From positions 166,262 to 230,261 of the forward strand of contig JBFMDH010000001.1 of NCBI GenBank assembly GCA_040754075.1: a stretch of DNA of 64,000 nt, given 5' to 3'. This document shows positions 15,839 to 58,950 of this stretch, one piece after another. The stretch's first letter is position 1, and every line of letters starts with the position of its first letter. Made by a program: the position numbers and the translations under genes. This stretch comes from Acidobacteriota bacterium. GTDB lineage: Bacteria > Acidobacteriota > Blastocatellia > UBA7656. The notes under the pieces were generated by a model. That model searched no databases. It was not told the origin of the DNA and was given only the letters and a program-made list of their open reading frames with translations.

Positions 15839-16081
15839 GAGTCCCTCTTATTGAATGAATTTGAAATGCGGCGCGATTATACAATCGGCAAATTTGGTTT
15901 GACAAAAGCGCCGTTGGGAAAGATGAAAATAAAAAGTTGGGAAGCAATTTTGCGCGCGATTAAACCGATAAATGCCAGGTGAACATTACCTTCGCGTCAG
16001 CAGGTGGATTCGCTTATCGTCAACGCGGCGCAAATATGATAAGTTGAGGCTGTTTGATGGCTTTCGTTTTTGAGAATTGAA

Positions 16082-16939
16082 ATGATAAATCCGGTAATCA
16101 AAAAAGCGCTGTTGTTATTTGCCCTGGTTCTGTCGGTTGCCGCTGCGAATTTCGCGCAAATCTCGAAGTTGCAATTTCCCCAGTCGAGTGGATATGTCAA
16201 TGATTTTGCCAATAAACTCAATCCGCAAACCCGGCAATCGCTTGAAAACCTGCTCACCAATTTTCGCAATCGAGCAAATATCGAAATCACTGTAGTGACC
16301 ATTCCCTTCGAGCAGATGAACGATTATCCGATTGAAGATTACACGCTCGAACTCGGCAGACGTTGGGGCGTCGGCAAGGCGTCCAACGAACCGGCGGCAG
16401 TGTTGTTGGTTGCCATCAAAGAAAAAGGCAGCGATGGCATGTATCATGGCGGCACGCGGCTTGAAATCAGCCGCCATCTTGAAGGCGATGTGCCCGACGG
16501 GCTTGCCGGTGAATTGATTCGGCGAATGCGTGTCGATTTTCAAAAAGGCAATTTTGACGGCGCATTAAATACCGGCGTGCAAACCATCCTTGCAACCATT
16601 GCCGAAAAACGCGGCATTTCGATGGAAGGCATCGACACCAACGCGGTCTATCGCCCACGAACGCGGCGACCATCAACCGGCATTTCACCCTCGACCATCA
16701 TCTTTATGATAATCGTCTTTTTTGTGGTGATGGCGATTTTGAGCCGCTTCGGGCGCGGGGGTGGCGGCGGTGGCGGTTACCGGCGTCGCGGTTCGGATTG
16801 GTGGGTCGGTCCGGTCATCTGGAGCGGCGGCGGGTCAGGCTGGGGTGGTTCCGGCAGTTCCAGCGATTCAGGCGGCGGTTGGGGCGGATTTGGCGGCGGC
16901 GGCGATTTCGGCGGCGGCGGCGCAAGCGATAGTTGGTAA
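16082..16939 (+). CDS. TPM-domain protein (YgcG-like) with TM segment and Gly-rich tail
   Basis: Signal peptide MINPVIKKALLLFALVLSVAAANFAQ. YVNDFANKLNPQTRQSLENLL is a typical TPM start. C-terminal TM segment, then GGGGGGGYRRRGSDWW...GGGWGGFGGGGDFGGGGASDSW. Confidence 0.8.
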   Translation: MINPVIKKALLLFALVLSVAAANFAQISKLQFPQSSGYVNDFANKLNPQTRQSLENLLTNFRNRANIEITVVTIPFEQMNDYPIEDYTLELGRRWGVGKASNEPAAVLLVAIKEKGSDGMYHGGTRLEISRHLEGDVPDGLAGELIRRMRVDFQKGNFDGALNTGVQTILATIAEKRGISMEGIDTNAVYRPRTRRPSTGISPSTIIFMIIVFFVVMAILSRFGRGGGGGGGYRRRGSDWWVGPVIWSGGGSGWGGSGSSSDSGGGWGGFGGGGDFGGGGASDSW

Positions 16940-17027
16940 ATGATGAAGGTTGCATGGGAAAGGGCGCGCAGCAATTGTCATTTTGAAAATAAATCGTATT
17001 GAATGATTTGAGAGGAGGGCATAAACC

Positions 17028-17738
17028 TTGGCTGATGAACTTTCGGAATTTGTCGATAAATTGGTAACCGCTCACGGCGGCAATTTGAAATCCATTGTGC
17101 TTTACGGCAAAGCCGTCGAGGGCGGGCAATTGGATGACGACGAGCGTAAAAAAGTTTTAGTCGTGCTTGAGGAAATTACTACTGAAGAGTTGAAAGCCGC
17201 GCACGAGGTTGCCGAATGGTGGCGCGAAGTCGGCAACCCTTTGCCCATCTATTTCACCGGGCAGGAAATTCGCGAATCATCCGATGTTTTTCCGATTGAA
17301 TTCATCGGGATGAGCCGCGTGCGCCACGTCGTATACGGGCAAGACCCGTTTGATGATTTGCAGATTCACACACACAATTTGCGTCATCAACTCGAATATG
17401 AATTGCGCGGTAAATTGATTCGCCTGCGTTCGCTCTATTTTCCCGCATCAAAAAATCCCAATCGCCTGACGGCGTTGATGGTCGATTCTCTGGAAAGCTT
17501 TGTCGAGCTATTCAAACACGTTTTGGAGATTTGCGGAATAGATGCGCCTATAGAGAAAAACGAAGTCTTACTAAAAATTGCCGATGCCTTGCATCTCGAT
17601 AAGCGCATCTTTGCGCGCATTGCCCAGTATAAAAAAGATGATGAGGTGTGGTTGGAATCGGAAACCAACGAAACCTTTTCGGCTTACCTGCGACTCATCG
17701 AACAGGTGATTCACGCCGTAGATAAACAGGCAAAATAG
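17028..17738 (+). CDS. hypothetical protein, possibly a nucleotidyltransferase-fold protein
   Basis: 236 aa. TTG start 8 nt after agaggaggg (Shine-Dalgarno). N-terminal LKSIVLYGKAVEG resembles a degenerate minimal-NTase G(S/K)x motif. Weak assignment. Confidence 0.3.
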   Translation: MADELSEFVDKLVTAHGGNLKSIVLYGKAVEGGQLDDDERKKVLVVLEEITTEELKAAHEVAEWWREVGNPLPIYFTGQEIRESSDVFPIEFIGMSRVRHVVYGQDPFDDLQIHTHNLRHQLEYELRGKLIRLRSLYFPASKNPNRLTALMVDSLESFVELFKHVLEICGIDAPIEKNEVLLKIADALHLDKRIFARIAQYKKDDEVWLESETNETFSAYLRLIEQVIHAVDKQAK

Positions 17739-17779
17739 AACGGCAAGGCAATGAATTTGTCTGTGATTGACCGGAGGCT

Positions 17780-18631
17780 TTAAGTCAATTTCACTTCTTC
17801 GAGTCCTTTGTCCGAGAGATAAAGTTTTTCGAGTTTTCCGGTCACGTATTCAAAGGCTTCATCAACCGAATCGGTTTTGAAGAAAATGTCGAGGTCTTGC
17901 GGGCTGACGACCCCCCATTTCACCAGCGCGTCAAAATTAATCACTTCATCCCAGAAGGTTTTGCCGAATAATAACACCGGCATGGTTTTGCCGGGCTTTT
18001 TGGTTTGTATCAAGGTGAGCACTTCAAAGAGTTCATCCATCGTGCCGAAACCGCCAGGAAAGGCAATCAAGGCTTTCGCCGGGTAAACGAACCAGAATTT
18101 GCGCATGAAAAAATAGTGAAAGTTGAAAACCAACTCACGCGAAACGTATTTATTCACATCCTGTTCGTGCGGCAATTCGATATTCAAGCCGATGGTTTTG
18201 CCGCGCGCCAGTGAAGCGCCGCGATTGGCGGCTTCCATCATGCCGCCCGACCCACCCGAACAGATAATGAAGTGATGTTGTCCGGTTAAACTTTTAGACC
18301 ATTCGGTGATGCGTCGCGCCAGGTCAACCGCATCCTGATAGTAACGCGACAGGTGAACGAGTTGCTCGGCTTTGGCAATCCGGTCTTGATATTCAGGCGA
18401 ATCGTCGTTTTGTTTTTGCAGTTCTGCAAGACGCGCCTCGGCGATGTCAGGCGCGACCGAACGCGCTGAGCCGAAAAAGACGATGGTGTCGCGCAGGTTG
18501 AAGCGGCGCAAACGGGCGCGCGGTTCCAGATACTCCGAAAGAATTCGCAAGGCTCGGGCTTCCGAGCTTTTCAAAAAATCGTCATTCAAATATGCCAGCG
18601 GCGGCATTTTGTCATTCAGCAAATCCGTCAT
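17780..18631 (-). CDS. LOG family protein (TIGR00730 Rossmann-fold nucleotide-binding; nucleoside 5'-monophosphate phosphoribohydrolase-like)
   Basis: 283 aa. PGGFGTMDELFE and SGGSGGMMEAANRGA are the LOG family signatures. Confidence 0.85.
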   Translation of the reverse strand: MTDLLNDKMPPLAYLNDDFLKSSEARALRILSEYLEPRARLRRFNLRDTIVFFGSARSVAPDIAEARLAELQKQNDDSPEYQDRIAKAEQLVHLSRYYQDAVDLARRITEWSKSLTGQHHFIICSGGSGGMMEAANRGASLARGKTIGLNIELPHEQDVNKYVSRELVFNFHYFFMRKFWFVYPAKALIAFPGGFGTMDELFEVLTLIQTKKPGKTMPVLLFGKTFWDEVINFDALVKWGVVSPQDLDIFFKTDSVDEAFEYVTGKLEKLYLSDKGLEEVKLT

Positions 18632-41209: not shown

Positions 41210-41632
41210 ATGAGAAGCATTCTCCAATATTTTGACCGCATTTCAGACATCATAGAATACAGCGAAGCAGAACTTGCTGAAATTGAATTTGAGCAAATCG
41301 ACTCAATTAGCGGAATGATCGATGGGGTCTTGTACTTTCACGACCATTCCCGGTTGGAGTTTACAGAAATCGTTACCATCCAAAAATCGTATGCACATAA
41401 CCGGTTATATCGCTATCAATACATTCAAGCCGAAGAAGCGATTTTTCGATACGACAATGCGCCACATCATCCGGATTTAGTAAACTTTCCGCATCATAAG
41501 CATATAGGTCGAAAAAAGGTTTCATCAACTGAGCCAACTTTGGCGCAAGTTTTAGATGAAATTTCCAAATGGATTAAAGATTCAGCCTTCCCTTTAAAGA
41601 AAGCACGCAAACAGCCACGAACTGGAAAATAA
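41210..41632 (+). CDS. DUF6516-like protein (TumE-type toxin family, tentative)
   Basis: 140 aa. FRYDNAPHHPDLVNFPHHKH motif as I recall it for DUF6516/TumE. Assignment is from memory, not a search. Confidence 0.45.
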   Translation: MRSILQYFDRISDIIEYSEAELAEIEFEQIDSISGMIDGVLYFHDHSRLEFTEIVTIQKSYAHNRLYRYQYIQAEEAIFRYDNAPHHPDLVNFPHHKHIGRKKVSSTEPTLAQVLDEISKWIKDSAFPLKKARKQPRTGK

Positions 41633-45806: not shown

Positions 45807-46064
45807 ATGACGCACAAAGTTTCTATAGAGCTACCGGATTCGGCGTTCGCGGCGTTGCGGAAATCGCCCGATGAATTTGTCCGTGAAATGCGACTTGCGG
45901 CAGTCGTCAAATGGTATGAACTCGGCGAACTATCGCAAAGCAAAGCCGCCGAAATTGTCGGGTTGAGTCGCGCCGAATTTATCAATGTGTTGTCACGTTT
46001 TCGCGTCTCGCCGTTGCAATACACAGCGGAAGAATTACAAGAGGAATTAGCCGGTGAAGATTGA
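45807..46064 (+). CDS. UPF0175 family antitoxin-like protein
   Basis: 85 aa. LRLAAVVKWYELGELSQSKAAEIVGLSRAEFINVLSRFRVSP is typical of UPF0175. Overlaps the downstream gene by 11 nt. Confidence 0.7.
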   Translation: MTHKVSIELPDSAFAALRKSPDEFVREMRLAAVVKWYELGELSQSKAAEIVGLSRAEFINVLSRFRVSPLQYTAEELQEELAGED

Positions 46065-46542
46065 GAGCGTCGTCATAAATGCCTCGCTCTTGATCGTGCT
46101 GTTCAAAAGCGGAATGGGAGATTTGCTGCCGCAACTTTTCAGGGAAATTTATATTCCCGAAGCCGTATGGCAGGAAATCATCGCAGGCGGCGCACAGGAT
46201 ACTGCCGCGCAAAATTTATCTTCCGCGACCTGGGCGCAGCGCGTTACGGTTTCCGTGACCAACCCAATTATCACAGCTTGGAATTTAGGAGCAGGCGAAT
46301 CAGAAGTCTTGAGTTATGCTCTTGAAAACCCCGGTTATCGCGCAATGGTTGATGACGCGGCAGCGCGCGCTTGCGCGAAAACTTTAAACATACCGACGCT
46401 TGGCACAGGCGGCGCAATCGTGTTGGCGAAAAACCGCAACTTGATTGATTCCGTTACTCAAGCATTAGAGGCTTTGCAAAACTCAGGATTATGGCTATCT
46501 GAAAACATTATTCGATTGCTCAAGCAACAAGCCGACGAATAA
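46054..46542 (+). CDS. DUF3368-type PIN-like nucleic-acid-binding protein
   Basis: 162 aa. Pattern VINASLLI...LGAGESEV...DDAAAR...LNIPTLGTGG. Canonical partner of UPF0175. Confidence 0.65.
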   Translation: MKIESVVINASLLIVLFKSGMGDLLPQLFREIYIPEAVWQEIIAGGAQDTAAQNLSSATWAQRVTVSVTNPIITAWNLGAGESEVLSYALENPGYRAMVDDAAARACAKTLNIPTLGTGGAIVLAKNRNLIDSVTQALEALQNSGLWLSENIIRLLKQQADE

Positions 46543-49091: not shown

Positions 49092-52000
49092 ATGCCGGAA
49101 TATTCCTTTCGTCTGACAATTATTTTTCAGACTTTTGAAAATGACACTGAGCTTGCCGAAGCTCTTTTTTTTCCCGAAATCTCCCGATTTGGCGATAAAG
49201 CGAAAAAATTAGAGAACGCGGTTAAGGAAAATGTCGTGCGCCTTGTCGAAGAAGACGATGCGCTCGCGCTCTATCGTCGTCACTTTACGAGCGAGCCTGA
49301 ACTTGGTGAAGCGCGCGTCACCGTCAATCCGCCACCGAAATCCATCGCCTGGCAAAAGCCGATTGATCTTACTTTTCAAATCCTGCTCTTTACGCATGGC
49401 GAAGACCTGTACATCGCTCACCTTCCACAACTTGGTATCGAAATCATTGGCAGAAACCGGGAAGAACTTGAAGAGAAAATTCCCGCAGAAATTCACGCGC
49501 ATCTCTTACGCATCAAAAAAAATCGCTCACTTGGCGAATTGTTCTGGTTGCAACGCGCCAAAGCGATTCGCCTGGCGCGAACCACTTTTGACGCGACCAT
49601 TCGCACGCCGAAACAGATAGCCAAAAGTCAGTATGCCGCTGACGAAGAGAAAAAATCCGAGCTTGAAAAAGTGGCGACCGATTTAGTCAAAGAGCATTTA
49701 CCGGAGGCTTTTGAGATAGACGAAACCGTCACCCGCATTGCAGACGCGCTTGGCGGTCGCCATCCGCGCAGTGTTTTACTGGTCGGCAAATCGGGCGTCG
49801 GCAAAACCGCTGCGGTGTATGAACTGGTGCGCCGTCGCGCGGCGTTTCGTCTGAGTCGCACACCGTTTTACGCAACCAGCGGCTCGCGACTGGTTGCCGG
49901 CATGTCAGGTTTTGGCATGTGGCAGGAACGTTGCGGCAAAGTCTGGCGCGAGGCTGCAAAACAAAAAGCGATTCTGCATTTCGGCAATCTGCTCGAACTG
50001 ATGGAAGTTGGCAAAAGCACGGCGAACAATCAGGGTATCGCGTCATTCTTTCGCCCCTACATCAGTCGTGGCGATTTGCTCTGCATTGCCGAATGCGCGC
50101 CTGAACAATTGCCCATCATTGAACGCGAAGCGCCAAATCTGCTTGACGCTTTTTTGCAAATTAAAGTTGATGAACCGACAGTTGAACGCGGTTCGGCAAT
50201 TCTGCTGCATTATGCGATTGCGCAAAGCGGGCGCGAGTCGCCGGTTGACCTCGAAGCGATTGAAACGATTGATCGGTTGCATCGCCGCTATGCGACTTAT
50301 TCAGCCTATCCCGGTCGCCCTTTGCGGTTTTTGAAAAATTTATTGCAGGATCGCAAAGGCGGTTCCATCAATGCCGCGATGGTCACTGCGCGTTTTTCCG
50401 AAGAGACCGGTTTGCCGCTATTTTTACTGAACGATGACCTGCCGCTCGATTTAGCGGCGACGCAGAAATTTTTCAGTGAACGGGTCATCGGACAAGCGAG
50501 CGCCGTTGAGTTGGTGGTTAATTTACTGGCGACCGTCAAAGCGCGGCTCACGCGAGCCGGAAAACCGATTGCGTCGTTGATGTTCATCGGGCCCACCGGC
50601 GTTGGCAAAACCGAAATGGCAAAGGCGCTTGCCGAATTCTTATTTCAAAATCGCAATCGCCTGATTCGTTTCGATATGAGCGAATATGCCGATGTGAATT
50701 CCATCGGGCGACTGATTGGCGGCGCGTGGGGAAAAGAAGGCTTGCTTACCGCGAAGGTGCGCGAACAACCGTTTGCGGTGATTCTGCTTGATGAATTTGA
50801 GAAAGCCCATCCGTCATTTTTCGATTTGTTGTTGCAGGTTCTGGGCGAAGGTCGTTTGACCGATGCGATGGGGCGGGTTGCCGATTTTACCAACGCGGTG
50901 GTGATTATGACTTCCAATCTCGGCGCGGAAACTTATAAACGCAATGCGCTGGGGTTTCGTGACGCGACGGATGCCACTGCGCAGGCTCGCGAACATTTTA
51001 TGAAAGCGGTGCAGGCATTTGTGCGTCCCGAATTTTTCAACCGCATCGACCGTATCGTGCCGTTTACACCGCTTGATGAAGCGACCGTATTGAAAATTGC
51101 CCATCGTGAACTGCAACAGATTACGCGACGCGATGGCATTTTCTATCGCGGGGTTGAATTAAATATTACCGAGCAGGTGGCTGAGCGATTGGCGCGAATC
51201 GGCTACGATGCGCGGTATGGGGCGCGACCTCTGAAACGCGCCATCGAACGAGAATTGCTGGTGCCGATTTCCGAAGCGTTGAATTTGCAAACCCTCGATG
51301 TCGGTTTACAGGCGGAGGTGACTGTCGAAGGCGATGAATTGAGTGTAGCGGTGCGCCTTAAAACCGATGAAGCCGGGCGCGTGATTTCCAAATCGTCGAA
51401 GAGCGCGCCGTTTGCCGAACTGGTAAAACAGGCGGCGAAACTCCGCCGCGATGCGCAGAACCTGCGTGGCAGTATCTTTGTTCAGGAGATTCAAAACGAA
51501 ATATTCAACCTTGAACGACTGGCGATGCGGCTTGCGAAAAATAAAACAAAAAATAAATGGCAAGACCCGGCGCAAGCTACAAGCCTTGCGCGGTTGCCCG
51601 ATTTGAAAAATAAATTACAGGCGCTTGAGGTATTCGTCACCCAAACGGCGCAATTTGAAGACGCCGTGTTGTTCTGTTTTTACGGCAAGGAGACCGGCGA
51701 TAAAAACGGTTTGCAGGCGCAACTTGCCGGGATGCAAAAACAGTGGACGGCGCGGTTGTTGGAAATTTACGGATTGCAATTTAAAAAGCCGGATGCGGTG
51801 ACGGTGGCGCTCTATTCGGAAAATGCCAACTGGTTATTTGAACTGGCGCGTGCCTATTTTGAAATCGCGAAACAAATCATGGCGAACGTCGAGGTTGTGG
51901 AATTTGCGGTGCCGTCGCATCAGGAAAGCGAAGCGATAAAGCTTCGCGTCAAAGCCGGTGAAAAAGTTGAGGTTTTTAATTTGCTGGGGCGCGTGACCAT

Positions 52001-52394
52001 TAAACGCCAGGTGAAAAAGCCGGAGGAATTTTTATCCGCGCCGAACGCGCAAACCGTTGGTATCGTGTTGGGCATAGCGGGTGAAATGGTGTTTCCGAGA
52101 TTTGAACCCGAACATGATTTGCACGCCATGACGGTTGCCAAACAAACCCATAACTGTTTGGTACATACCAGTGAAGCGCGCCTCGAAGATTACCTGCCGG
52201 TGAAAGAATTGGATAAACGCGGCAGCATCAAGCATCAGGACGCGCGACGCCTTTATAACCGCGACGACAGCTCGGTTGAAGATTTGTCGCTTGAAGAGAA
52301 ATTTTACTTAGACCGTGATAATTTAGTTGCGGTTGTGCATCAGGCGATTGAACGCCGCTTGCTCAAAAGCGCGCAAGGATTGCTGGATGAATGA
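49092..52394 (+). CDS. atypical ClpA/ClpC-like double-AAA+ ATPase with novel N-domain and C-terminal release-factor-like module (paralogue 1)
   Basis: 1100 aa.
- NBD1: Walker A GKSGVGKT; Walker B position reads AILHFGNLLEL (no acidic pair).
- NBD2: GPTGVGKT, ILLDEFEKAH, TSNLG, GARPLKRAIEREL.
- LGF at aa 620-622, at the ClpA IGL-loop position.
- C-terminal aa ~775-1100 aligns with RF1/RF2 motifs (see findings). Confidence 0.85.
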   Translation: MPEYSFRLTIIFQTFENDTELAEALFFPEISRFGDKAKKLENAVKENVVRLVEEDDALALYRRHFTSEPELGEARVTVNPPPKSIAWQKPIDLTFQILLFTHGEDLYIAHLPQLGIEIIGRNREELEEKIPAEIHAHLLRIKKNRSLGELFWLQRAKAIRLARTTFDATIRTPKQIAKSQYAADEEKKSELEKVATDLVKEHLPEAFEIDETVTRIADALGGRHPRSVLLVGKSGVGKTAAVYELVRRRAAFRLSRTPFYATSGSRLVAGMSGFGMWQERCGKVWREAAKQKAILHFGNLLELMEVGKSTANNQGIASFFRPYISRGDLLCIAECAPEQLPIIEREAPNLLDAFLQIKVDEPTVERGSAILLHYAIAQSGRESPVDLEAIETIDRLHRRYATYSAYPGRPLRFLKNLLQDRKGGSINAAMVTARFSEETGLPLFLLNDDLPLDLAATQKFFSERVIGQASAVELVVNLLATVKARLTRAGKPIASLMFIGPTGVGKTEMAKALAEFLFQNRNRLIRFDMSEYADVNSIGRLIGGAWGKEGLLTAKVREQPFAVILLDEFEKAHPSFFDLLLQVLGEGRLTDAMGRVADFTNAVVIMTSNLGAETYKRNALGFRDATDATAQAREHFMKAVQAFVRPEFFNRIDRIVPFTPLDEATVLKIAHRELQQITRRDGIFYRGVELNITEQVAERLARIGYDARYGARPLKRAIERELLVPISEALNLQTLDVGLQAEVTVEGDELSVAVRLKTDEAGRVISKSSKSAPFAELVKQAAKLRRDAQNLRGSIFVQEIQNEIFNLERLAMRLAKNKTKNKWQDPAQATSLARLPDLKNKLQALEVFVTQTAQFEDAVLFCFYGKETGDKNGLQAQLAGMQKQWTARLLEIYGLQFKKPDAVTVALYSENANWLFELARAYFEIAKQIMANVEVVEFAVPSHQESEAIKLRVKAGEKVEVFNLLGRVTIKRQVKKPEEFLSAPNAQTVGIVLGIAGEMVFPRFEPEHDLHAMTVAKQTHNCLVHTSEARLEDYLPVKELDKRGSIKHQDARRLYNRDDSSVEDLSLEEKFYLDRDNLVAVVHQAIERRLLKSAQGLLDE

Positions 52395-52550: not shown

Positions 52551-55500
52551 GTGAACATAACGCTTCCGATTTACATTCAAAAACCTGCGCCGCAAGACAC
52601 CTTGCCGCCGACGCATATTCTGCGCCCGCTGTTTTTCCCCTATATCGAAGTGCAGGGCGAAGACCTCAATCGCGCCGTCACCAAGCTGGCGCAAAAGATT
52701 CGCCACGAGTGTGACCGACTCGGTAAGGCGATGCGTCACGACCAACTTTCAAAATTTGGTTTCGCGCCTGACCTCGAAGACCGCTTTTTGAAACTCACGC
52801 TCGACCTCGGCAGTCGAAAAGCCGAGTGCAATTTTCTATTTGTCGTCATGCAAACGGTGGGGCGCAAAATTGCTTTTACTCCGGCGCTTGCCGATTTATG
52901 GTTTGAGATTCATCGCGGCGAAACCTTAGTCAACCGCGCCACCGAAGTTCTGTCGCATTACTTTCGCCAGAAACAGAAACGCGAAGGCAACGATGCCCTG
53001 AGACCCGAAGCCTTTTCGGTCAGCGGTAAAGCCTGGGTAACGACGCTCGACATCAGCATCAATCCACCGGCGCGCGCGCCCAAGCTTGTGCAAAATCTCT
53101 TTGCCCTGCTTGGCGAAGCGCCGCAGATGGATGGCGCGGAAGAACTCAATCGCGTCGGGCGATGCCTCGATTATCTTTACCCGGACGATTTGCAGCGGGT
53201 GATTTTTCGGGAGACGGAAACTGAAGCCTTGACCGCGATTTTGAAATCGCAGGACAAACGCCCGGTGCTGTTAATCGGCGAACGCCTGGTCGGAAAGACG
53301 GCGATCATTCACGAATATGTGCATCGCGCTGTGAGCCAACGTCACTCGAAATTCGACGCGAAAAATCAAGTGTGGTTGATTGCGCCGCAACGGTTGATTT
53401 CGGGAATGTCTTACGTCGGGCAGTGGGAAAACCGTCTGCTGGCGATTTTGAAAGTTGCGAAAAAAAAGCAACACATTCTCTACTTCGATGATTTGCTCGG
53501 ACTCTATCAAGCCGGGCAGAGCGCCAGTTCTTCTCTAAGCGTTGCCGATGTTTTAAAACCTTATGTAGAAAAACGCGAAGTGCGCATCCTTGGCGAAATC
53601 ACTCCCGAAGCCTTTCGGGTATTTCAGGAACGCGACCGCGGCTTTGCCGATTCCTTTCATCTGTTGCCGGTCAAAGAACCCGATGAAGATAAAACCTTTC
53701 GCATTCTTCTGCATTTGATGCGCGAGCTTGAGCGCAAACATCGCGCCACTTTTTCTACGGATGTTTTTCCGACAGTGATGGATGTGCAGCGACGCTACAC
53801 ACGCGATGCGGTGTTCCCCGGCAAGGCGGCGATTTTCCTGCAACAACTCGCCGTCAAATATCGCCACGAGCGCGTCACCCGCGATGAAGTATTACAGGAG
53901 TTTCACGCGAAAAGCGGTTTCAGCTTGAATTTTTTGAATGATGAAAACAAACTCACACGGCAAGAGGTAATCGAAGCGGTCGGCAATACGGTCATCGGGC
54001 AGGAGGCGGCGCTTGCTGCCTGTGCGGATGTGGTGTCGATGGCAAAGGCGCGGCTCAATGACCCAGACCGCCCGCTCGCGTCGTTTCTGTTTTTAGGACC
54101 CACAGGGGTTGGCAAAACCCAATGCGCGAAATCGCTTGCGGCATATCTGTACGGCGATGGCGATAAACTTATTCGTTTCGATATGAATGAATATTCGTCG
54201 CCCTATGCGGTGGCAAGACTGGTCGGCACATTCCATCAACCCGAAGGATTGCTCACCAGCGCCGCGCGGCGGCAACCGTTTTCGGTAGTGTTGTTTGATG
54301 AAATCGAAAAGGCGCACCCGGATGTTTTCAATCTTTTATTGCAGGTAATGGGTGACGGGCGGCTTACGGATGCGCTCGGACGAACGGTCGATTTTACCAA
54401 CGCGATGGTCATTTTAACCTCGAACCTCGGCGTCAAAGAGGCTGCGAAAAATCTGGGCTTTCATCGTGACAGAGAACGCGATGGGCAGGTTTATACGCAA
54501 GCCGCCGAGAAATTTTTCAAGCCGGAATTTTTCAATCGCCTCGACCGCATCGTGCCGTTTGCAAGGCTCGGACGCGAAGAGGTGATGCAGATTGCCGAAG
54601 GGTTGATTCAACAGGTTTTTGCGCGTGAAGGATTGGTGCGCCGCAAATGTATTTTACAGGTGGATGAACGGGCAATGGCGCGCATTGTTGAGGAAGGTTA
54701 TCACCCACAACTCGGAGCGCGCGCCCTGAAACGCCTGCTTGAACGCGAGTTGACCCAACCGGTGGCAAGACAACTTGCGACTCTTAAACCCGATGCGCCC
54801 ACGCTCATTAAAGTTTATCCGGCGGCAAGTGAGCTAAAAGTTACGGTCGATTCATTGAAAGGCGCAACGTTGAATGATGAGAGCGCAAGGTTGATTGAAG
54901 GGGTTGCGCCAAAACAGATTGTTGAGCTTGCGGAAGCCGCAGTTGACCGCATTGAATCGCAGGCGGCAAAGATGAGTCCGCAAGGGCTGATCAATCCCGA
55001 TGCCGTGGATGCTACACAACTCGCCTATTTTCAAATTCGCGAACAGGCGCGCCGGGCGCGTGAACTTTGTGAAAAGGTCGCGGCAAAAATCAAACCAACC
55101 GGAAAGCCACTGGTGTCGCGTTCACGCGGTCGCAGCATTGCGGCTTCGCAATTCACTTTGCGTCAGGTAAGCGTCGGAGATTTATGGCAACGATTGATTG
55201 AAGCGGGTGATGTGCGTCAGTTGATGCGCGAACTGCTAACCACTGCCCAACCCTATGGTGAACGCCTCGAAGATTACCTTTCAGAGTTAACGCGCGAGAC
55301 CGCCTTGCTTGAGGTGATTGCGCAAAGCAACGATGAGGTTTCAACCCATCAGGCATTGATGTTGATTCAATCGCTGGACGAAGCCTTTAAAGTCGAGCGT
55401 GAACGGCTGGCAAAAATTTATCACGAACTCTTTACCTATAAACTGGGAAGCCGCGCAGAGTTATTGACCGGCAATCAGGAGGCGGCGGCTTTGCACAGCG

Positions 55501-55877
55501 ATGCCGTGTTGATTCAAGGCGTAAATGTGTTGGCGCTGGCTAAACCCGAAACCGGCGCTCACCTGTTTTACACGGCTAAAGAACAACTCGTGCCGTTGCA
55601 AATTCACGTCTTGCCGGTAATTGACCATTCCGCAGCCGCGACGATTCGCCGGTTTGCTGAAAGTCAGAAGAGGCGATTAAGCGAGCCGGTCGATACCAAC
55701 GAAACCGATTTAAACGAGGCATCGGTTATTCGGGTTTATGAAGAGAACGGCGCGACGCTTGATTTACGCTCAGGACTGATGACGCTCAAGATGCCGACGA
55801 CGAAAGAACTGCGCGCCTTGTTACTTGCGGCTTTGCCATTGCCAATGGAGATGCAATCGGTAGTCGGTAGCCGGTAG
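52551..55877 (+). CDS. atypical ClpA/ClpC-like double-AAA+ ATPase with novel N-domain and C-terminal release-factor-like module (paralogue 2)
   Basis: 1108 aa, GTG start.
- NBD1: GERLVGKT; Walker B ILYFDDLL.
- NBD2: GPTGVGKT, VLFDEIEKAH, TSNLG, GARALKRLLEREL.
- LGF at aa 635-637.
- C-terminal aa ~785-1108 is RF-like (ETGAHLF, IRVYEENGATLDLRSG). Confidence 0.85.
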   Translation: MNITLPIYIQKPAPQDTLPPTHILRPLFFPYIEVQGEDLNRAVTKLAQKIRHECDRLGKAMRHDQLSKFGFAPDLEDRFLKLTLDLGSRKAECNFLFVVMQTVGRKIAFTPALADLWFEIHRGETLVNRATEVLSHYFRQKQKREGNDALRPEAFSVSGKAWVTTLDISINPPARAPKLVQNLFALLGEAPQMDGAEELNRVGRCLDYLYPDDLQRVIFRETETEALTAILKSQDKRPVLLIGERLVGKTAIIHEYVHRAVSQRHSKFDAKNQVWLIAPQRLISGMSYVGQWENRLLAILKVAKKKQHILYFDDLLGLYQAGQSASSSLSVADVLKPYVEKREVRILGEITPEAFRVFQERDRGFADSFHLLPVKEPDEDKTFRILLHLMRELERKHRATFSTDVFPTVMDVQRRYTRDAVFPGKAAIFLQQLAVKYRHERVTRDEVLQEFHAKSGFSLNFLNDENKLTRQEVIEAVGNTVIGQEAALAACADVVSMAKARLNDPDRPLASFLFLGPTGVGKTQCAKSLAAYLYGDGDKLIRFDMNEYSSPYAVARLVGTFHQPEGLLTSAARRQPFSVVLFDEIEKAHPDVFNLLLQVMGDGRLTDALGRTVDFTNAMVILTSNLGVKEAAKNLGFHRDRERDGQVYTQAAEKFFKPEFFNRLDRIVPFARLGREEVMQIAEGLIQQVFAREGLVRRKCILQVDERAMARIVEEGYHPQLGARALKRLLERELTQPVARQLATLKPDAPTLIKVYPAASELKVTVDSLKGATLNDESARLIEGVAPKQIVELAEAAVDRIESQAAKMSPQGLINPDAVDATQLAYFQIREQARRARELCEKVAAKIKPTGKPLVSRSRGRSIAASQFTLRQVSVGDLWQRLIEAGDVRQLMRELLTTAQPYGERLEDYLSELTRETALLEVIAQSNDEVSTHQALMLIQSLDEAFKVERERLAKIYHELFTYKLGSRAELLTGNQEAAALHSDAVLIQGVNVLALAKPETGAHLFYTAKEQLVPLQIHVLPVIDHSAAATIRRFAESQKRRLSEPVDTNETDLNEASVIRVYEENGATLDLRSGLMTLKMPTTKELRALLLAALPLPMEMQSVVGSR

Positions 55878-55885: not shown

Positions 55886-55941
55886 GTGTTTAGTGGTTGA
55901 ATAGAGCGAGGAAGGCTTATGATAAAAAACCGGAGGTAATT

Positions 55942-56553
55942 ATGAGGAACTTCATGTACTGCTTTTTATTTTTATCAAGCCTTTTGACCTTATTGTTGAT
56001 GGTCACGCCGACCGCGAAAGCCTGTACACGCGCCGGCCCGTTTACGTTTAATGAGTTATTCGATAATGCAGAGGTGATTGTGCGGGCTACCGCCGTTAAG
56101 TATGCAAAGGTTCCTGATAATCCGAATATGCGGACAACGGGAGAGCCGGATTCAATTATTCAATTCAAGGTTGAAGAAATACTGAGAGGCAAAAACCTCG
56201 CGAGTACCATCCTGCTCAATGGTTATTTGAGTGATAGTGATGATTACAACGAACAGCCTGTACCTTATACCTTCGTCCGTCCGAATGGTCGCGATGGAAG
56301 TTGCTTTGCGAATACCTATAAACAAGGCGGGCAATTTCTCTTGTTTTTAAAAAAAGTCGACAGTGAATATACGCCCAATATCAGCGCACTTGGCCCAACC
56401 AATGAACAATTGCGAGATGAAAACGACCCCTGGTTGAAATGGGTTAAAGAGCATTTGAAAACCGAAACGAAGCGCAAGCCGCGACTTGCGCTGAACTGGA
56501 AATCACAATTCATAATCGAACACCTCTTCGATAGGGATTGGATATTGGTTTAG
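55942..56553 (+). CDS. hypothetical secreted protein embedded in the AAA+ cluster
   Basis: ATG at 55942 preceded by ggagg. MRNFMYCFLFLSSLLTLLLMVTPTAKAC signal peptide. No recognised domain. Visibly AT-richer than the flanking AAA+ genes (by eye). Confidence 0.55.
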   Translation: MRNFMYCFLFLSSLLTLLLMVTPTAKACTRAGPFTFNELFDNAEVIVRATAVKYAKVPDNPNMRTTGEPDSIIQFKVEEILRGKNLASTILLNGYLSDSDDYNEQPVPYTFVRPNGRDGSCFANTYKQGGQFLLFLKKVDSEYTPNISALGPTNEQLRDENDPWLKWVKEHLKTETKRKPRLALNWKSQFIIEHLFDRDWILV

Positions 56554-56643: not shown

Positions 56644-58950
56644 ATGCCGAGTTTTCGTTTTCCAATTTTAATCTGGGAAGACCACGAAGGATATTTTACC
56701 GCGTGTCCGGTCGAGGGTTTTTATAACACTTTTGCGGGAATAGGTCGCAGTGCCAGTGAAGCGGTTTTTCAATTGAAAGAATTTCTCGCTTATCACTACG
56801 AGAAAAACCCCTGGGCAGCGCCGCCCGATTTTCACGACGCCAAACTCATCGAATTTCGCGCTGATGTGCGCCCGGAATATCGCATTGAAGAAATTGTCGG
56901 CGACCGCAAACAAAAAAATATTTACCCGACCGAAGAAACCCTCGCCTTGCGTTTTGCCTGTGTACACGGCAAACAGCAAGCCGGATTGCTCATCTGTGTG
57001 CTGCCGCTTTTCGGCATACAATTTTATTACTACGATGAAAAGAAACTGAAAGAACTGGCGGTCACCTATGTGCAGGAGAGTTTCAAAGGTCTTGCCCCAC
57101 AACAACTCACAAGATTCTTACCGCCTAAAAATTATCGACTTGATGAAATCGTCATCAATGTTTCACGCAAAGAAACCAGATACGAATACCAACCCTCGCT
57201 TGACACCTTGAACGAAATTGCCGAACCCCTCGGCGACAAACGATTGCGCAGACAATTTTCCGCCGCCTGGGAGCGTGACACGGAAGTTAGAGACCTCGCC
57301 CAGCGCATCGGCAAAGAGAAAGCCAACGTCATCATCGTCGGCGACAGCGGCATCGGTAAAACCACTTTGCTGGTGAACGCGGTGCGTGAAGTTGAACAGC
57401 ATATGATTGCGGGCGATGACGAAGAAAACGCCGGGCGCAAAGCCAGACACCGATTTTATTTGACCAGCGGCGCGCGCATCATCGCAGGGATGCGCTATCT
57501 CGGTCAGTGGGAAGAGCGGGTTGAATCGCTCATTGATGAGCTTGCGGAAATCAATGGCGTGTTATGCGTCGGCAGCATTTTGGACTTAATCCTTGCAGGC
57601 GGTGAAGTGAGCGCCAGCATCGCGGCATTTTTACAGCCCTTTCTGCAACGCGGCGAATTGCAACTCGTAGGCGAAGCGACGCCCACCGAACTCGATGCCT
57701 GCCGAAGATTATTGCCGGGATTTGCCAGCCTGTTTCAAATTCTCAATCTGCAACCGTTCAATCGCGCCCAGGCGATTGCGATTTTGCAACGCGCTTCGGA
57801 AACTTATCAGCGCAATTATCGCATTGAGGCGGCAAGCATCCTGCCGGAACTCGTCTATCGTTTGTTCAATCGCTTCTCGCCTTATCAGGCATTCCCCGGA
57901 AAAGCCATTGCCTTTCTGCATTCGGCATTTGAACGCGCCGAACTTGAACATAAAACGGCAATCACCGGCGAAGACCTGATTCAAAAGTTTGTGCGGCAGA
58001 CCGGACTCCCCGAACTTTTTTTACGCGATGAATTGCCGCTCAACCAGTATGACATCGTTGAATTTTTTGAACAGCAGGTCATCGGGCAACGCGCCGCCTG
58101 TGAAGTTGCGGCAAATCTGGTGACTACATTCAAAGCCGGGTTGAACGACCCGCAACGCCCGATTGGGGTGTTGCTGTTTTGCGGGCCGACCGGGGTTGGC
58201 AAAACCCAACTCGCAAAAGCGATTTCGGAATACCTGTTCGGACAAGGCGAAGAACGCAACCGCTTAATCCGGCTCGATATGAGCGAATATGGCGATTTCG
58301 GCGCGGCAGAACGTTTGATTACCAAGCCCAATGGCGAGCCGAGCGATTTGATTCAGCGGGTACGCCAGCAACCATTCGTTGTGGTGTTGTTCGATGAAAT
58401 CGAAAAAGCCGACGTAGCGGTTTTCGATGCGTTGCTCAGTGTTTTCGATGAAGGGCGCATCACCGACCGTTACGGGCGAACCACTTCATTTCGCAGCGCC
58501 ATCATTATCGCGACGTCGAACATCGGCGCAGATAAAACCGCGAGCATCGGATTCGATGGTCACAATGTGCGCGGTTTTGCCGCGGAGGTGATGACTTTCT
58601 TTCGCCCGGAATTTTTTAATCGCCTGGATGCGGTTGTCGGTTTTCGCGCGCTCGACGAAGAAGCGATTCTCAACGTAACGCGCAAAGAATTAGCTGAGAT
58701 TGCCAAACGCGAAGGGATAAACGCCTCGAATACCAGATTAATTTGGACAGAACGATTAATTGAATATATGGCGAAAGCCGGTTATGACGCGCGATATGGC
58801 GCGCGCCCTTTGCAACGCACCATTGAACAGATGATCGTTGCGCCGCTTTCGCGATTCCTGCTTGAACACCTGATGAGCAAAGGCAAAACCATTCAAGCCG
58901 ATTTCCTCAATGGCGAAATCCGTTTTTCAACTACGGAACATACGGAATAG
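56644..58950 (+). CDS. atypical ClpA/ClpC-like double-AAA+ ATPase with novel N-domain, no C-terminal extension (paralogue 3)
   Basis: 768 aa.
- NBD1: GDSGIGKT; Walker B position reads GVLCVGSILDL.
- NBD2: GPTGVGKT, VLFDEIEKAD, TSNIG, GARPLQRTIEQ.
- IGF at aa 635-637. Confidence 0.85.
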   Translation: MPSFRFPILIWEDHEGYFTACPVEGFYNTFAGIGRSASEAVFQLKEFLAYHYEKNPWAAPPDFHDAKLIEFRADVRPEYRIEEIVGDRKQKNIYPTEETLALRFACVHGKQQAGLLICVLPLFGIQFYYYDEKKLKELAVTYVQESFKGLAPQQLTRFLPPKNYRLDEIVINVSRKETRYEYQPSLDTLNEIAEPLGDKRLRRQFSAAWERDTEVRDLAQRIGKEKANVIIVGDSGIGKTTLLVNAVREVEQHMIAGDDEENAGRKARHRFYLTSGARIIAGMRYLGQWEERVESLIDELAEINGVLCVGSILDLILAGGEVSASIAAFLQPFLQRGELQLVGEATPTELDACRRLLPGFASLFQILNLQPFNRAQAIAILQRASETYQRNYRIEAASILPELVYRLFNRFSPYQAFPGKAIAFLHSAFERAELEHKTAITGEDLIQKFVRQTGLPELFLRDELPLNQYDIVEFFEQQVIGQRAACEVAANLVTTFKAGLNDPQRPIGVLLFCGPTGVGKTQLAKAISEYLFGQGEERNRLIRLDMSEYGDFGAAERLITKPNGEPSDLIQRVRQQPFVVVLFDEIEKADVAVFDALLSVFDEGRITDRYGRTTSFRSAIIIATSNIGADKTASIGFDGHNVRGFAAEVMTFFRPEFFNRLDAVVGFRALDEEAILNVTRKELAEIAKREGINASNTRLIWTERLIEYMAKAGYDARYGARPLQRTIEQMIVAPLSRFLLEHLMSKGKTIQADFLNGEIRFSTTEHTE

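Follow-up and report, generated by a model that had tools for sequence, protein, structure and literature searches.

Three consecutive Clp-type AAA+ paralogues of an Acidobacteriota bacterium carry a conserved x-G-F loop and are probably heteromeric partners of ClpP

ATPases that partner with ClpP are distinguished from ClpB by a tripeptide (PMC5540906, PMC10149685), and a Phi-GF motif is the feature separating ClpC from ClpB (PMC10149685). In the MecA/ClpC/ClpP structure, the motif is a Phi-GF that is inserted into the H-sites of ClpP, and the P-loop that bears it is long and very flexible in cryogenic electron microscopy (cryo-EM) of ClpC/ClpP (PMC12521514). The first residue of the motif may be alanine, as in the AGF of Staphylococcus aureus ClpC, in which the G672D/F673D exchange abolishes ClpP binding (PMC12521514), and grafting the ClpA loop on ClpB suffices for ClpP coupling (PMC5540906). 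The nearest precedent in approach for the present work is the definition in Actinomycetota of ClpI, a ClpB/ClpC-intermediate Hsp100 class that was defined from sequence and whose LGF-like loop was used to predict ClpP coupling (PMC10149685). We analysed a stretch of 64,000 nucleotides (nt) from an Acidobacteriota bacterium (assembly GCA_040754075.1, contig JBFMDH010000001.1, positions 166,262 to 230,261 of the forward strand; hereafter the window, with coordinates given as positions within it and on its plus strand unless stated otherwise). Three long consecutive plus-strand open reading frames (ORFs), here called A, B and C, encode Clp-type ATPases with an x-G-F loop at the docking position of ClpA and ClpC and, judged from their sequences and a structure model, are probably a heteromeric ClpP partner with a translation-linked module.

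A (49092..52394, 1100 aa) consists of an N-domain, the AAA modules D1 and D2 and a release-factor (RF)-like C-terminal domain, B (52551..55877, 1108 aa) has the same domain layout, and C (56644..58950, 768 aa) comprises an N-domain, D1 and D2 and terminates directly past the D2-small domain; pairwise identity among the three is 35-37%. A preliminary description of this DNA had placed an (L/I)GF tripeptide in the D2 module of each protein. In-frame translation agrees with it and returns flanking peptides identical to those it quoted, with LGF at 50949..50957 in A (aa 620-622, CTGGGGTTT), LGF at 54453..54461 in B (aa 635-637, CTGGGCTTT) and IGF at 58546..58554 in C (aa 635-637, ATCGGATTC). The tripeptide lies 8-10 residues past the sensor-1 TSN (counted from the Asn) and 17-22 residues ahead of PEFFNR, and it has the form of the Phi-G-F/L tip by which ClpP partners are recognised in sequence, on the loop that follows sensor 1 and precedes the PEFxNR helix of the ClpP-proximal module. 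The spacing is close to that of ClpA (10+3+18, vs 10+3+22, 9+3+20 and 8+3+17 in A, B and C), with which the trio shares an I/L-G-L/F tripeptide in exact alignment. The loop of Bacillus subtilis ClpC, 'TSNVGASELKRNKYVGF', is likewise very similar to a loop of the trio, 'TSNLGAETYKRNALGF'.

We performed a phmmer search with A against all PDB chain sequences. The top match was the BAP chimera (5ofo), with native ClpB below it; BAP (5ofo, 4d2q) is an engineered ClpB with the ClpA P-loop, and it ranks first because it carries that loop. The alignment sets 'nlgaetykrnaLGFrdatd' of A over 'nlgvreterksIGLihqdns' of BAP, so that LGF falls residue for residue on the ClpA IGL and the assignment of the tripeptide to the ClpP-docking loop position of ClpA and ClpC is borne out. 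BAP differs from the trio in being an artificial chimera, with the N-domain, M-domain and canonical pore loops of ClpB. At the aligned position native Escherichia coli ClpB reads 'rFGEld' and plant ClpB1 reads 'mVGKns': in the aligned sequences ClpB shares the glycine with the trio loop and lacks the hydrophobic third residue.

An AlphaFold2 (AF2) model of full-length A was built with 119 orthologues and reached a mean predicted local distance difference test (pLDDT) of 88.5. Residues 620-623 (LGFR) are the sole segment of the 1100-aa model at pLDDT < 50, within a 16-residue coil (the P-loop of A, aa 609-624, 50916..50963) that DSSP places between the sensor-1 strand (603-608) and a helix (625-643). 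The tripeptide of A is thus in a flexible, surface-type coil of the model, neither helical nor buried, and its low confidence matches the flexible P-loops of the ClpC/ClpP cryo-EM (PMC12521514). When the whole model was compared with the PDB by Foldseek, ClpC protomers from ClpC-ClpP complexes ranked first, with ClpB interleaved. No long coiled-coil insertion is found in D1 of the model, hence neither a ClpB-type nor a ClpC-type M-domain, and this absence makes DnaK-coupled disaggregation of the ClpB type unlikely.

We assessed conservation of the loop in at least 120 full-length orthologues of A (45-73% identity, all from metagenome-assembled genomes (MAGs) of Acidobacteriota/Blastocatellia type) and in genomes searched, at one per species, with a family-specific N-domain+D1 profile. 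The latter search gave 228 confirmed relatives, and 80 of their loci were retrieved. The ORFs of the retrieved loci were sorted against A, B and C, and loop columns were taken from a MAFFT alignment. Carriers belong to at least 5 phyla (with Acidobacteriota, Planctomycetota, Verrucomicrobiota, Sericytochromatia and Limnocylindria represented), and the family matches include one cultured isolate, Verrucomicrobium sp. BvORR106. Complete genomes with the trio are OZ252034.1, OZ242279.1, OZ260084.1, OZ244207.1 and JADJRK010000001.1. Four contigs (L010, L012, L022 and L064) are labelled as 'uncultured Clostridia', 'Actinomycetota' or 'Akkermansia muciniphila' MAGs and encode A proteins closest to Blastocatellia/Verrucomicrobia sequences; these contigs are likely mis-binned or mislabelled.

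Among 185 distinct loops of the A family, the second position of the tripeptide is G in 183 and the third is F in 161 and L in 20. The 51 distinct loops of the B family have G in all 51, followed by F in 45, L in 3 and W in 2, and the 41 of the C family have G in all 41, followed by F in 37 and Y in 2. Of the 277 distinct loops taken together, 275 have the glycine and 267 (96%) have Phe/Leu at the third position, and G621 of A is invariant across 119 orthologues. The columns flanking G-F are highly variable in all families. Such a G-F island within a variable loop indicates selection and is the signature of a docking peptide, and the expectation that the tripeptide is conserved among orthologues is thus confirmed across phyla and in three paralogue families. 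The first position is more relaxed: in the A family it is most often L (38), V (27), A (22), F (18), P (16), I (15), T (12) or M (10), among others, and L, I, V, M or F together make up 58% of A, 43/51 of B (84%) and 35/41 of C (85%). The motif originally given as (L/I)GF in all three proteins is accordingly better written x-G-F with a mostly hydrophobic x, a range within which the AGF of S. aureus ClpC falls (PMC12521514). Alanine at the first position is experimentally tolerated; the P, T, K, Q and S found there in the A family are unusual.

We then placed the trio among the described Clp families. Pfam detected AAA_2 (E 1e-37 to 1e-47) followed by ClpB_D2-small in each protein (in A at aa 491-654 and aa 661-735, respectively), and D1 was recognised via its Walker A and by alignment to D1 of ClpB and ClpA; tandem AAA modules, AAA_2 and D2-small together make A, B and C two-ring ATPases of the class-I Clp/Hsp100 type. 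The NCBIfam scores were 286-373 bits with the ClpA model (TIGR02639 / PRK11034, cut-off 993) and 323-378 bits with the ClpB model (TIGR03346, cut-off 1232). Because this range of 286-378 bits is far under the cut-offs of the Clp families (993-1232 bits), the trio, as judged by profile scores, falls outside the orthologue families of ClpA, ClpB and ClpC. Pfam found no Clp_N domain in the whole proteins or in their isolated N-domains, and no UVR in the three proteins. A protein identical to A is present in NCBI under the label 'MAG: AAA family ATPase [Acidobacteriota bacterium]', and family members are publicly annotated as 'AAA family ATPase' or 'ClpA/ClpC'; automated 'ClpA' or 'ClpC' labels thus conceal the family. 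No account of the trio or of an RF-like/Clp fusion was found in the literature, with the full-text search limited to open-access papers and bioRxiv. The trio would then be a previously undescribed, cross-phylum family of Clp-type unfolding ATPases. An identity as anti-phage defence ATPases was considered and rejected, as the PADLOC matches (PDC-M37B/DolB models) are partial and span the AAA_2 core only; membership of a defence system was likewise rejected, with no conserved defence-type neighbours among 84 loci.

The trio follows the N-domain, D1, D2 order of ClpA, which also has no M-domain, and differs from ClpA in lacking Clp_N and a D2 GYVG, in its degenerate D1 Walker B, in consisting of three obligate paralogues and in the RF-like C-terminal domain of A and B. 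ClpC/ClpC1 of Firmicutes and Actinomycetota supply the best structural matches, from ClpC-ClpP complexes; the trio is unlike them in having no Clp_N repeats, no short M-domain or UVR and no MecA-type adaptor context, in its apparently inactive D1 and in the extra C-terminal domain of A and B. With ClpI it shares recognition as an Hsp100 class from sequence and an LGF-like loop (PMC10149685), whereas in ClpI the ATPase modules are intact and an M-domain like that of ClpC is present; ClpI is also encoded by a single gene and has neither taxa nor accessory domains in common with the trio.

The motor modules depart from these relatives in D1 and in the D2 pore loop. The D1 module of A (49704..50471) has Walker A GKSGVGKT, Walker B ILHFGNLLEL and pore loop GFGMW, and its D2 module (AAA_2, 50562..51053) has the pore loop GGAWGKEG in place of GAPPGYVGYEEGG. 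D2 retains GPTGVGKT, hhhDE, TSN, the NR arginine finger and the GAR sensor 2 invariantly in all three families. By family column counts, D1 retains Walker A in all three families and has a degenerate Walker B (49971-50000 in A, 53475-53504 in B, 57559-57588 in C), which reads hhhh-G-N with no acidic pair in the A family, hhhh-D-D in the B family (DD in the B of the window) and hhhh-(E/D)-(N/S) in the C family (G-S in the C of the window). D1 is probably, on these motifs, a nucleotide-binding and non-hydrolysing ring. Its pore loops are aromatic and conserved (GFGMW in A, (Y/F)-V-G-Q-W in B, Y-L-G-Q-W in C). The D2 pore-1 loop (aa 540-553 in A, about 50709-50750; aa 556-569 in B; aa 557-570 in C) is shortened and reads G-x-(F/G/W)-G, poorly conserved, in the A family and G-T-F-x-x-P-E-G in the B family; in the B of the window, the D1 and D2 pore loops are YVGQW and GTFHQPEG. 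The canonical GYVG pore-1 motif is thus missing from the ring that would be proximal to ClpP, and Y/F-Phi-G is found in D1 of B and C instead. These D2 pore loops are atypical for a ClpP-proximal ring and are the chief internal caution on calling the trio conventional unfoldases. The preliminary description had predicted protease-coupled unfoldases and not disaggregases of the ClpB type: the homologous, flexible and conserved loop, the missing M-domain and the ClpC-ClpP top matches agree with that prediction, and the degenerate D1 Walker B and the D2 pore loops put in doubt that the proteins are conventional unfoldases.

The C-terminal domain of A (aa 757-1100, ~345 aa, 51360..52391), which corresponds to RF domains 1, 2 and 4, was modelled alone with a pLDDT of 94.3 and a predicted template modelling score (pTM) of 0.89. 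In a Foldseek search of this model against the PDB, the top 44 matches were all RF1, RF2 or mtRF1 (E down to 1.6e-8). A profile hidden Markov model (HMM) of the domain matched Thermus thermophilus RF2 with an E-value of 1.6e-7 and covered RF2 residues 2-160, 171-191 ('EaGvHrlvr') and 308-327 ('RsY...D'), and the most conserved residues of the domain (E1007, G1009, H1011, R1053 and D1064 in A) correspond to those of the RF motifs E-x-G-V-H-R and R-T-Y-N...D. The C-terminal domain of B (54840..55874; ETGAHLF...IHVLPV...VIRVYEENGATLDLRSG) is also RF-like: its family profile matched RF2 independently of A (E 1.3e-7), and hhalign aligned the B and A profiles with a probability of 85%. Three independent methods, Foldseek and the profile HMM among them, thus identify the C-terminal domain of A as a look-alike of class-I release factors, with the fold of the PCRF superdomain (RF domains 1, 2 and 4). 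Missing are the ~83 residues that match RF domain 3, with ~34 profile positions where RF2 has 117 residues, and the domain has an insertion of ~38 residues relative to RF1/RF2. GGQ was not found in A or B, nor was a PxT/SPF stop-codon tripeptide in the consensus of the C-terminal family, so that these domains differ from RF1/RF2 and PrfH in lacking the GGQ domain 3 and PxT/SPF, as well as in being fused behind an AAA+ D2. The isolated C-terminal domains gave no significant Pfam match (PCRF appeared faintly in 4/42 members, E >= 0.015). A HMMER search with the domain against 1.84 billion cluster representatives retrieved 373 relatives at E <= 1e-3, and all full-length ones are ~1080-1170 aa long with the domain at the C-terminus; the family is therefore rare, and the fusion is the rule. 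We regard this GGQ-less release-factor module, which does not figure in the preliminary description, as a more surprising feature than the docking loops.

The N-terminal domain of A (~200 aa, 49092..49691) is composed of two repeats of the beta-beta-beta-alpha type (secondary structure of the AF2 model), and those of B (52551-53150) and C (56644-57243) align with it; the three are homologous to each other, with beta-rich repeats. As isolated domains they gave no significant Pfam match, and a profile of them against the PDB gave a single match, T. thermophilus TTHA1756 (2yzt; 67 aa, E 3.9e-4), which we take to have possibly a HicB/UPF0150-like fold. The N-domains of the trio are unrelated to the Clp_N fold.

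The order A-B-C is found in 34 of the 48 loci whose sequence continues for 6.5 kb or more downstream of A, and 4-nt overlaps occur at twelve A/B and six B/C junctions. This conserved order and translational coupling, together with the ancient divergence of the paralogues, point to a hetero-oligomeric assembly of co-expressed subunits. A is solitary in ~8/48 loci with sufficient flanking DNA (L002/L012, L010, L011, L020, L046, L058), and in one locus (L029) ~6 kb separates A from an upstream C, so the trio is not always contiguous. Clustering of 810 flanking ORFs from 84 loci revealed no shared family besides the trio; HtrA-like genes are present in 5/84 loci.

We incline, by a small degree over even, to the reading that A, B and C form a heteromeric, D2-driven double ring of the ClpA/C kind that docks on ClpP via six Phi-GF loops and degrades the clients it threads. 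In such a machine the three proteins would be subunits of a three-paralogue ClpA/ClpC-like double ring, most likely hetero-oligomeric, with D2 hydrolysing ATP as the motor and D1 binding nucleotide as a catalytically degenerate module that bears conserved aromatic pore loops. Each subunit would offer, on its D2 face, a flexible P-loop with a Phi-G-F tip, homologous to the IGL loop of ClpA and the (A/V/L)GF loops of ClpC. The most likely partner of these loops is a ClpP tetradecamer, with its gene at another place in the genome, which would accept them in its hydrophobic H-sites. Captured polypeptides, whose direction of threading we infer, would be degraded instead of refolded. Clients would be selected by the family-specific N-domains and by the RF-like domains of A and B, the latter hinting at a translation- or ribosome-linked client. 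Two systems offer analogies. Pex1/Pex6 is a heterohexameric type-II AAA+ assembly of paralogous subunits with degenerate D1 and active D2, and the eukaryotic Vms1-Cdc48 pairs an RF-like module lacking canonical GGQ chemistry with an AAA+ unfoldase. Both have no sequence relation to the trio past the AAA+ fold.

Several observations weigh against docking on ClpP. The NCBIfam scores of the trio for ClpB equal or exceed those for ClpA. D1 is without the canonical ATP-hydrolysis mechanism, given its Walker B, and the D2 pore loop falls 5 residues short of its counterpart in ClpB or ClpA, has no GYVG and, in the C family, lacks a conserved aromatic residue. In ~40% of the A family the tripeptide opens with a non-hydrophobic residue (A, P, T, K, Q, S or R). 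The RF-like domains of A and B are joined at the D2-small end, on the ClpP-proximal side, and may occlude, compete at or redirect the face turned to ClpP. Finally, no ClpP was found by tblastn within 10 kb of the family in any of 84 loci. A tblastn search with E. coli ClpP yielded no ClpP-like sequence in the 64-kb window (best E 0.6), in agreement with the earlier remark that the window has no clpP gene. As a rule, clpP is not linked to the genes for ClpA and ClpC, and the lack of linkage is for this reason weak counter-evidence.

The main alternative is an x-G-F loop that docks a partner other than ClpP, such as a hydrophobic groove on a neighbour's RF-like domain, the ribosome or another peptidase. 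The trio would in that case be a remodeller or extractor that works without ClpP, with a translation complex as one conceivable target; we hold this to be possible, if rather unlikely. The RF-like domains directly downstream of D2 in A and B are in its favour, but C carries the motif with no such domain, and the AF2 model leaves the loop, its least confident part, unpacked against the C-terminal domain of A itself. The non-canonical D2 pore loops, the relaxed first loop residue of the A family and the want of clpP linkage among the 84 loci also fit, against which stands the match of loop position, length and G-F to proven ClpP-docking loops (PMC12521514).

A second alternative, to which we give a low probability, is that G-F is kept for structural reasons, as a helix-loop-helix cap or in the packing of D2 protomers, with no docking, and that the trio is a stand-alone unfoldase or chaperone. 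The glycine of E. coli ClpB and plant ClpB1 at the aligned position speaks for it, as it makes some of the pattern an ancestral trait of the fold, but the Phe/Leu is absent from ClpB and kept in 96% of the trio loops, a packed residue is expected at high confidence and not at the pLDDT of the LGFR segment, and the flanking residues vary freely. Coincidence or an annotation artefact, with no selection on the tripeptides, has nothing but the low complexity of a three-residue pattern in its favour and can be dismissed, because the motif recurs at the same aligned column in three 35%-identical paralogues and, across several phyla, in 277 distinct loops of their orthologues.

Returning to docking on ClpP, a more specific proposal, bold and in our view unlikely, is that the trio is a heterohexameric Clp motor whose GGQ-less RF-like domains, present on two of the three subunits, enter the A site of ribosomes that have stalled or been damaged, and that it extracts the polypeptide there and passes it to ClpP through the xGF loops. 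Joint engagement of ClpP and the ribosome is hard to picture, since the RF-like domain attaches on the ClpP-proximal side. If true, this would give bacteria a ribosome-associated quality-control protease that unites in a single machine the roles of eukaryotic Vms1/Dom34-like RF mimics and of Cdc48. If the loops dock ClpP, whatever the client, ClpX, ClpA and ClpC/E would be joined in many Acidobacteriota, Planctomycetota and Verrucomicrobiota by a partner of a fourth type, and its three dedicated paralogues, inactive D1 ring and unusual pore loops would widen the design space of AAA+ proteases. The RF-like fusions on two subunits point to an unreported connection of regulated proteolysis with the ribosomal A site.

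Between B and C, which are mostly adjacent or overlapping in related loci, the window has a 218-aa ORF (55897-56553) with a hydrophobic N-terminal stretch that resembles a signal peptide and ends in ...TAKAC. This ORF had no match in Pfam, NCBIfam or PADLOC and no counterpart in 84 related loci, which suggests an insertion into the operon specific to this lineage. The neighbours of the trio in the window are of housekeeping or unrelated function; they are purL/purQ-like or encode a GNAT protein, a hydrolase, an aldo-keto reductase, an EPSP-synthase family protein and an M28 peptidase. Upstream of the trio, housekeeping genes surround an ORF of the TumE toxin family (41210-41632) and a DUF3368 ORF (46054-46542). 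Both are probably of toxin-antitoxin type, and other genomes showed no link of either with the trio. In a Limisphaerales MAG (locus L067), a gene of conventional ClpC-like type, whose loop reads MGF ('TSNVGAETIRKGTTMGFGP...'), is called at 16078-18570 on the minus strand and overlaps the C region; this opposite-strand call may be an oddity of ORF calling or assembly.

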